Positions 26,438 to 29,124 of a stretch of DNA of 64,000 bases are shown here, one piece after another. The notes beneath the pieces are model-generated. The model was not told where the DNA came from and searched no databases. It worked only from the letters and a program-made list of their open reading frames with translations. The position numbers were made by a program, and so were the translations under genes. Each line of letters opens with the position of its first letter. Within the stretch, counting starts at the first letter, position 1. The DNA comes from Escherichia coli (GTDB taxonomy: Bacteria; Pseudomonadota; Gammaproteobacteria; Enterobacterales; Enterobacteriaceae), in assembly GCF_050920415.1 (NCBI RefSeq), contig NZ_CP169309.1; one strand, written 5' to 3'.

Positions 26438-27680
<1,243 letters not shown>

Positions 27681-27915
27681 TCTATACCTACTCCTTCCCG
27701 TAACGTCTTTAATACGCTGTAAGTATTACTATACCTGCGCAACCAGACCCTGTGAAAAGTCCAGAATGCCGTTTTCTGCATTATTCACATATTTGATAAA
27801 AACTCTCTATCAAAGCGACGTTTTGATAAAAAAATATTGTCCCCGAAGTGATGGGAAAAGTCTTAGCGGCAATGCAGAATAGAAAGTGCTCATCTTTTAT
27901 TTCCCGGGAGGGGAA

Positions 27916-29124
27916 ATGTCCCGCGTGTCGCAGGCGAGGAACCTGGGTAAATATTTCCTGCTCATCGATAATATGCTGGTCGTGCTGGGGTTCTTTGTTG
28001 TCTTCCCGCTGATCTCTATCCGCTTCGTTGATCAAATGGGCTGGGCCGCCGTCATGGTCGGTATTGCCCTTGGTCTACGTCAGTTTATTCAGCAAGGTCT
28101 GGGGATTTTCGGCGGCGCAATTGCCGACCGCTTTGGTGCCAAACCGATGATTGTCACCGGTATGCTGATGCGTGCCGCCGGATTCGCCACAATGGGTATC
28201 GCCCACGAACCGTGGCTACTGTGGTTTTCATGCCTGCTTTCGGGACTCGGCGGCACGTTGTTTGATCCTCCGCGTTCGGCGCTGGTGGTGAAACTAATCC
28301 GTCCACAACAGCGTGGTCGTTTTTTCTCGCTGTTAATGATGCAGGACAGTGCCGGTGCGGTCATTGGCGCATTGTTGGGGAGCTGGCTGTTGCAATACGA
28401 CTTTCGCCTGGTCTGCGCCACAGGGGCAGTTTTGTTTGTGCTGTGTGCAGCGTTCAATGCGTGGTTGTTACCGGCATGGAAACTCTCCACCGTACGCACG
28501 CCCGTTCGCGAAGGCATGACCCGCGTGATGCGCGACAAGCGTTTTGTCACCTATGTCCTGACGCTGGCGGGTTACTACATGCTGGCTGTACAAGTGATGC
28601 TGATGCTGCCAATTATGGTCAACGACGTCGCGGGCGCGCCGTCTGCCGTTAAATGGATGTATGCCATTGAGGCGTGTCTGTCGTTAACGTTGCTCTACCC
28701 TATCGCCCGCTGGAGTGAAAAACATTTTCGTCTGGAACACCGATTGATGGCTGGGCTATTAATAATGTCATTAAGCATGATGCCAGTGGGTATGGTCAGC
28801 GGCCTGCAACAACTTTTCACTCTGATTTGTCTGTTTTATATCGGGTCGATCATTGCTGAGCCTGCGCGTGAAACCTTAAGTGCTTCGCTGGCAGATGCAA
28901 GAGCACGCGGCAGCTATATGGGGTTTAGCCGTCTGGGTCTGGCGATTGGCGGCGCGATTGGTTATATCGGTGGTGGCTGGCTATTTGACTTGGGTAAATC
29001 AGCGCACCAACCAGAGCTTCCGTGGATGATGCTGGGCATTATTGGCATCTTCACTTTCCTTGCGCTGGGTTGGCAGTTTAGCCAGAAACGCACCGCGCGT
29101 CGTTTGCTGGAACGCGACGCCTGA
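27916..29124 (+). CDS. mdtH: MFS multidrug efflux transporter MdtH
   Basis: ORF 27886..29124; start chosen at ATG 27916 ([14 protein letters not shown]..., 402 aa) preceded by a GGGAGGGG Shine-Dalgarno; 12-TM MFS profile. Confidence 0.93.

Follow-up and report, generated by a model that had tools for sequence, protein, structure and literature searches.

A conserved array of TTYGAT(D)AA sites between the divergent rimJ and mdtH promoters as a candidate operator of mdtH in Enterobacteriaceae

The short spacer between the divergent genes rimJ and mdtH of Escherichia coli contains clustered copies of TTTGATA in direct and inverted orientation, which raises the question of whether these repeats are a binding site for a regulator and which of the two promoters they would serve. 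The spacer lies in a 64,000-nucleotide stretch of DNA (the window), an E. coli chromosome segment with 99-100% identity to other E. coli chromosomes. The coding sequence of rimJ, whose product modifies ribosomal protein S5, occupies 27096-27680 on the minus strand, and that of mdtH, which encodes a major facilitator superfamily (MFS) efflux transporter, occupies 27916-29124 on the plus strand; both are given by the annotation of matching genomes and by the list of open reading frames (ORFs), and both agree with the gene names assigned earlier from the letters alone (the sequence-only reading). The spacer between them is 235 bp long (27681-27915). A 401-bp stretch around the cluster is matched in 5,425 of 5,426 complete E. 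coli genomes with 95-100% identity, and its flanks are annotated rimJ and mdtH. The cluster is almost certainly a region where protein binds to control the weak mdtH promoter. It is tentatively interpreted here, at a likelihood a little short of even, as a conserved cis-regulatory array whose dyads are operators for an oligomeric regulator with sequence specificity.

The array has three sites. The 11-mer TTTGATAAAAA is present in two exact copies on the plus strand, site 1 (27792-27802) and site 3 (27822-27832), with starts 30 bp apart. Site 2 is the inverted copy CTCTATCAAA (27805-27814), which reads TTTGATAGAG on the minus strand; its arm TATCAAA (27808-27814) is a perfect partner of the TTTGATA at 27792-27798, with 9 nt between them. 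Site 3 sits within a near-invariant 21-bp block, TTTTGATAAAAAAATATTGTC (27821-27841, plus strand), the 3' half of which is an A7 tract followed by TATTGT. The clustered direct and inverted copies described by the sequence-only reading are therefore real, and only their extent requires correction, from 27781-27840 to 27792-27832 (27791-27841 with the conserved flank). Sites 1 and 2 make up dyad 1, a perfect GAT-N11-ATC (27795-27811, centre 27803), and site 3 with its conserved flank makes up dyad 2, an imperfect GAT-N11-GTC (27825-27841). Each dyad is 17 bp long and the two are exactly 30 bp apart. The same period extends to the mdtH promoter, since site 1 starts at 27792, site 3 at 27822 and the mdtH -35 hexamer at 27852. 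The A+T content of 27781-27841 is 75%, compared to 60% for the spacer and 50% for the window.

The repeats are arranged in a way that chance would very rarely produce. Exact matches to TTTGATAAAA in the window are limited to the two cluster copies, and although there are 88 TTYGAT/ATCRAA words in the window, this is the only place where at least three fall within 41 bp. Of 3,000 shuffled versions of the 235-bp spacer that preserve its dinucleotides, 0.17% contain a direct repeat of 11 nt or more within 60 bp, and 0.3% contain a 7-mer that has two direct copies and one inverted copy within 60 bp.

The array is also conserved across Enterobacteriaceae. A RimJ-based scan of species-representative genomes found 80 Enterobacteriaceae loci, 74 of which have mdtH divergently adjacent to rimJ. 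The spacers of these 74 were aligned to the window, giving a footprint of 75 spacers from about 25 genera, all of them Enterobacteriaceae sensu stricto with RimJ at least 90% identical. A protein search for mdtH orthologues gave only close relatives among the matches returned. The alignment has conserved blocks separated by freely varying sequence. The majority-base frequency is 0.90 at site 1, 0.87 at site 2 and 0.98 (mean) at 27821-27841, and in the variable stretches it is 0.52 (27815-27820), 0.53 (27842-27851), 0.57 (27860-27872) and 0.52 (27738-27749). Site 1 has the conserved core TTYGAT(D)AA; TTYGAT is found in 70 of the 74 other spacers, as TTCGAT in 45 and as TTTGAT in 25, and in most genera the site is TTCGATGAA. 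The conserved form of site 2 is CTCWATCRA, with CTCWATC in 55/74. In the block around site 3, AAAAAATATTGTC is kept in 68/74 and the 20-mer 27822-27841 is letter-perfect in 56/74. Within TTYGAT, the G, A and T hardly ever change and the Y is either T or C; the G+C-containing CTC of site 2 is conserved. The rare variants of site 3 fall on the Y and D positions, as they do in site 1, which suggests that the copies are versions of a single motif.

The spacing of the array is as conserved as its letters. The offset from site 1 to site 2 is 17 bp and that from site 1 to site 3 is 30 bp, each in 73/73 spacers. From site 3 to the mdtH -35 hexamer there are 30 bp in 61 spacers and 31 bp in the other 13 of the 74, and the starts of the mdtH -35 and -10 hexamers are 23 bp apart in 74/74. 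In E. coli itself, the 65-bp cluster shows at least 99% identity in 5,337 of 5,422 genomes and carries no annotation. The sequence-only reading had staked its claim on the motifs being conserved in orthologous intergenic regions, and both cores and spacing are indeed kept in about 25 genera. The repeats it saw are non-random; however, what is conserved is TTYGAT(D)AA and not TTTGATA, and the perfect identity of the 11-mers is specific to Escherichia. The conservation is base-specific and not compositional.

Published transcription start sites (TSSs) place the cluster between two experimentally mapped divergent promoters, as the sequence-only reading had proposed. The sole mdtH entry has 58 reads and a 28-nt leader, and the sole rimJ entry has 20 reads and a 40-nt leader (Kim et al. 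2012, PMC3415461, supplementary file 2). The mdtH TSS is the G at 27888 (plus strand), located by the upstream sequence ...GGGAAAAGTCTTAGCGGCAATGCAGAATAGAAAGTG printed in that file, and the rimJ TSS is at 27720 (minus strand). The Cappable-seq TSS data have no entry at the rimJ/mdtH coordinates, and no entry for the locus was found in the Klebsiella TSS data. The mdtH TSS sets a -35 hexamer TGGGAA (27852-27857, 3/6 consensus, kept in 64/74 spacers) and, after a 17-bp spacer, a -10 hexamer CAGAAT (27875-27880, 4/6 consensus, kept in 61/74). On the minus strand, a promoter scan gives rimJ a -35 hexamer TTCACA (27751-27756, kept in 64/74) and a -10 hexamer TATAGT (27728-27733, kept in 70/74), also with a 17-bp spacer and together matching 10/12 consensus positions. 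The baseMean of mdtH mRNA is about 45, compared to 326 for rimJ (expression rows of the y-gene transcription-factor chromatin immunoprecipitation (ChIP)-exo paper), a low level that fits a normally-off promoter. A weak core promoter with low mRNA is of the kind that depends on upstream factors.

Relative to the mdtH TSS, site 1 is at -96 to -86, site 2 at -80 to -74 and site 3 at -66 to -56, within the block at -67 to -47. Relative to the rimJ TSS, the same sites are at -72 to -82, -88 to -94 and -102 to -112. Dyad 1 is centred at -85 of the mdtH promoter (PmdtH) and -83 of the rimJ promoter (PrimJ), within one base of the midpoint between the two TSSs; dyad 2 is centred at -55 of PmdtH, and the A7-TATTGT tract is at -60 to -47. 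The cluster is in untranscribed DNA upstream of both published TSSs and therefore acts as DNA, not RNA. A search of the cluster against Rfam gave no family match at an E-value of 1 or below, and a structured RNA element was rejected since the cluster is outside both transcripts. A terminator-like hairpin at 27857-27840 (minus strand) was also rejected, since both TSSs are downstream of it and the stem lacks conservation. The TTGATA copies do not serve as a -35 hexamer, as there is no -10 element at 16-18 bp on either strand and site 1 contains TCGATG in most genera. A minus-strand ORF over the cluster (27781-28035) cannot be conserved because its frame is broken by the 30/31-bp variation between site 3 and the -35 hexamer.

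Two other features of the spacer touch the promoters. A GAAAA-N13/14-TTTTC element at 27752-27776 (CTGTGAAAA...CATTTTC), over and just upstream of the rimJ -35 hexamer, shows strong conservation among the genera and is possibly a rimJ promoter element in its own right. A perfect 9-nt inverted repeat, TTCTGCATT / AATGCAGAA, has arms at 27774-27782 and 27871-27879 with 88 nt between them; the first is only moderately conserved, and the second runs into the mdtH -10 hexamer.

The three TTYGAT(D)AA copies, in forward-reverse-forward order, are best read as two 17-bp dyads. An oligomeric sequence-specific protein would occupy both dyads on one face of the helix and from -85 and -55 control PmdtH, which with TGGGAA, a 17-bp spacer and CAGAAT is intrinsically weak; the protein may also influence rimJ. 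The promoter-proximal copy appears fused to the A7-TATTGT tract at the position of a distal UP element, and this tract probably also helps to recruit the C-terminal domain of the RNA polymerase alpha subunit. The same AT-rich tract is a likely entry point for H-NS in E. coli, through which H-NS would silence PmdtH, and activation from upstream or counter-silencing would be the most plausible role for the specific factor. Specific protein binding, the oligomeric state and the sign of regulation are what we infer. The sequence-only reading suggested the site of a dimeric regulator; its non-random direct and inverted repeats hold up, but two dyads 30 bp apart in register with the -35 hexamer fit better than a single dimer site, and a dimeric protein is still putative. 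The arrangement resembles H-NS-silenced promoters with counter-silencers of the LeuO or SlyA/RovA type, which share the weak core promoter, the AT-rich upstream tract, the recorded H-NS occupancy and derepression, and the discrete conserved sites upstream of -45. It differs from them in that there is no cognate activator gene nearby, the SlyA consensus is not matched, and the rimJ-mdtH spacer is conserved core-genome DNA rather than horizontally acquired.

The sites could instead be nucleation points for H-NS or StpA on a curved AT-rich tract, from which H-NS would spread and silence PmdtH with no dedicated regulator. This is an unlikely explanation. The H-NS high-affinity motif is reportedly tCGATAAATT (said to be that of Lang et al. 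2007), which the core TYGATAAA resembles; the match is 7/10 in E. coli and 8/10 for Klebsiella site 1, but 96% of shuffled spacers reach 7/10. Knock-down of hns by CRISPR interference raises the cloned mdtH promoter (FC_Glu 1.93, -logP 10; PPTP-seq, PMC10505187 Supplementary Data 6), and H-NS binding to that promoter is recorded by genomic SELEX (gSELEX, 6.8%) and ChIP-seq and flagged as not previously known (PMC10505187). These published data show occupancy and derepression at the resolution of the promoter fragment rather than the motif, and the knock-down effect could be indirect. The raised A+T content of the cluster and the A-tracts about three helical turns apart also suit H-NS; however, the invariant G, a T/C toggle that lowers A+T, the conserved CTC and the rigid spacing exceed what composition alone would need. 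The block could also be mainly an UP element with curved DNA for the alpha C-terminal domain, the upstream copies being kept for DNA geometry, but this has only a slim likelihood. As in UP elements of the rrnB P1 type, there is an A/T tract at -60 to -47 and a poor -35 hexamer; the distal subsite AWWWWWTTTTT matches 9/11 in the correct register, at exactly -57 to -47, and the full consensus matches 10-11/14 at -59 to -38. In contrast to that type, the proximal subsite (AAAAAARNR) is absent, with 2-4/8 matches, the block has invariant bases (G27825, G27839 and C27841) that UP elements do not require, and the two further conserved sites beyond -70 (sites 1 and 2, -74 to -96), with their conserved G and C positions, are left unexplained. 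A sequence-specific regulator is favored over H-NS or an UP element alone because of the base-specific cores, the T/C toggle, the CTC and the spacing fixed to the base pair.

The sites are very unlikely to be operators of UlaR or another DeoR-type repressor acting on rimJ. UlaR has a 10.5-fold peak at the rimJ promoter by DNA affinity purification sequencing (DAP-seq) (PPTP-seq Supplementary Data 6, PMC10505187), and knock-down of ulaR in lysogeny broth (LB) is accompanied by a rise of that promoter with a fold change (FC) of 1.07 (PMC10505187). The peak is weak, though, and the knock-down shifted many unrelated promoters. The K-12 ulaG-ulaA spacer (locus L081) has three copies of the 18-nt TGTGATTNNTTTTGAWWA, at 2665-2682, 2743-2760 and 2897-2914, which are presumably the UlaR operators; one of them holds TTTGATTAA, an exact match to TTYGATDAA. 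Only TTTTGAWWA, the 3' half of this presumed unit, is present in site 3 and nearly in site 1, and the site 1 of most genera is less like it. Since no more than this half is shared, and UlaR is described as having one strong site and many weak ones (PMC12059191), the peak is read as weak cross-binding to a half-motif. The array is similar to DeoR-type arrays (UlaR, GlpR) in having several T-rich TTYGA/TTCGAT half-sites over several turns between divergent promoters, but its spacing of 17, 13 and 30 bp is unlike that of the ula and glp operators, and the GlpR 20-bp palindrome has 6 mismatches. A box for Nac or another LysR-type regulator, with a tetramer on recognition and activation sites 30 bp apart, is very improbable indeed. 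LysR-type sites are usually found near -65 and -35 with a divergent LysR-type gene. Two dyadic sites about three turns apart, abutting a promoter in a divergent intergenic region, resemble that layout; T-N11-A is contained in the GAT-N11-ATC of dyad 1, and ATAAAAACTCTCTAT at 27796-27810 fits ATA-N9-TAT of Nac. However, dyad 2 is T-N11-G, the arms extend outward to 17 bp, the centres are at -85 and -55, the divergent gene, rimJ, codes for no regulator, and none of the neighbors rimJ, yceH, mdtH and grxB is a LysR-type regulator gene. The ATA/TAT is not conserved, as most genera have ATG-N9-AAT, and this short pattern arises in 11% of shuffles. The locus is also not among the entries of the searchable ChIP-exo data on LysR-type y-genes. 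A functionless chance repeat in AT-rich intergenic DNA is effectively excluded. Short repeats do arise in A+T-rich spacers, and the cluster of three TTYGAT words alone has an expectation of about 0.1 per 64 kb (estimated from word counts in the window), but the shuffles give the repeats at only 0.17-0.3%, and the notion is contradicted by the near-identity of the cluster within E. coli and by cores and spacing kept in at least 70 independent species.

The spacer and its shuffles were also scanned with about 57 transcription-factor and sigma-factor consensus sequences. The set included Fur, FNR, CRP, IHF, Fis, Lrp, ArcA, ArgR, the MarA/SoxS/Rob box, PhoP, OmpR, CpxR, GlpR, DeoR, the H-NS motif and the alternative sigma factors. 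For these sequences, the inability of the sequence-only reading to name a known operator is upheld, as is its statement that the cluster is not a Fur box. The best match to a Fur box (GATAATGATAATCATTATC or at least three GATAAT-like hexamers) is outside the cluster at 27882-27900, with 8/19 mismatches, and is equalled by 76% of shuffles. An FNR site (TTGAT-N4-ATCAA) is rejected since the half-sites are 11 bp apart rather than 4, and its best match has 3 mismatches (78% of shuffles). The best CRP match (TGTGA-N6-TCACA) has 4 mismatches. The IHF consensus WATCAANNNNTTR is matched by TATCAAAACGTCG with 1 mismatch, which 32% of shuffles equal, and it is rejected also because its TTR part is in the non-conserved 27815-27820. 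The MarA/SoxS/Rob box AYNGCACNNWNNRYYAAAY is relevant because mdtH encodes an efflux pump; its best match is elsewhere in the spacer with 4 mismatches (95% of shuffles), and the conserved block has no GCA on either strand. Phased arrays of the Lrp type, with sites about 30 bp apart, share the exact 30-bp period of site 1, site 3 and the -35 hexamer, but the SELEX consensus YAGHAWATTWTDCTR is unmatched in the cluster and has its best match elsewhere in the spacer with 3 mismatches (45% of shuffles).

The sole striking consensus match is a perfect DnaA box, TTATTCACA (consensus TTATNCACA), at 27781-27789, which is 2 bp upstream of site 1 and at -61 to -69 of the rimJ TSS and is found in 1% of spacer shuffles. 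The box adjoins site 1 rather than lying inside it, the TTTGATAAA copies match only 4/8 specified positions, and because only 19/74 other species (Escherichia and Citrobacter) have the exact box, it cannot account for the array. Two weaker matches are located over the mdtH promoter. An RcsAB-box match, TAAGACTTTTCCCA (27852-27865, minus strand, 11/14), overlaps the -35 hexamer, and a degenerate Fis core match, GAATAGAAAGTGCTC (27877-27891, plus strand), covers the -10 hexamer and the TSS. The distinguishing bases of both are in non-conserved columns.

Natural variants bear on the relation of the array to the two genes. The five Kluyvera loci have no mdtH beside rimJ, but a different gene whose product starts MGEISVTKLL. 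Sites 2 and 3 and the mdtH promoter are lost there, and all that is left of the spacer is the rimJ -10 element with one TGTGATAAAAAA. In Intestinirhabdus, sites 1 and 2 are missing and site 3 is degenerate. In E. coli WCHEC000837 (NZ_CP032879.1), one clinical isolate among about 5,420 genomes, the array is split by an IS1 between sites 1 and 2 (at about 27800; the insert is 776 bp long with its target duplication), which puts the rimJ promoter farther from mdtH. As these variants show, most of the array is dispensable for rimJ. Since the losses are contiguous deletions of DNA, the variants give no clean separation of rimJ from mdtH.

Several points weigh against an operator array for a specific regulator. 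The sample is limited to Enterobacteriaceae whose RimJ is at least 90% identical, and limited divergence among such close relatives explains part of the conservation; the variable stretches between the blocks argue against this as the whole explanation. With half-sites separated by 17 bp, the two arms of a dyad lie on different sides of the helix, an unusual arrangement for simple dimers. Specific binding to the sites is putative, as the recorded occupancy is that of H-NS and the weak UlaR peak, and much of the AT-rich conservation could in principle be explained by H-NS binding plus an UP element. None of the approximately 57 consensus sequences matches the cluster better than shuffled sequence. 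The IPOD-HR supplements have no entries for rimJ or mdtH, and mdtH and rimJ are not targets among the entries listed in the ChIP-exo supplements on uncharacterised transcription factors.

A narrower form of the operator array is that it belongs to an uncharacterised Enterobacteriaceae regulator that responds to a signal and switches on or counter-silences the H-NS-repressed mdtH. This is speculative and rather unlikely. The regulator could be a y-gene transcription factor or, more speculatively, YceH. The gene yceH (26438-27085, minus strand) is 10 bp downstream of rimJ and encodes a DUF480 protein with structures 5VYV, 5U8J and 3BZ6.

The gene mdtH encodes an MFS efflux pump that is on most E. 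coli resistance-gene lists, and no dedicated regulator or physiological signal was found described for it in the literature. No paper was found that discusses the rimJ-mdtH spacer, rimJ together with mdtH/yceL, or the sequences of the block and dyads; literature on mdtH with H-NS, rimJ binding sites and the motif words gave only resistance-gene lists or 16S primers. The array is of a familiar kind, a conserved transcription-factor site array between divergent promoters, with no new mechanism, and the gain is incremental. It illustrates that well-studied intergenic regions of E. coli still hold unassigned operator-like elements. It also gives a concrete handle, a 60-bp probe and three point-mutable cores, for finding the factor and the conditions in which the pump is expressed. 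If the array does belong to an uncharacterised regulator, this would be the first dedicated regulator of mdtH and would provide a pointer to the physiological substrate of the pump.

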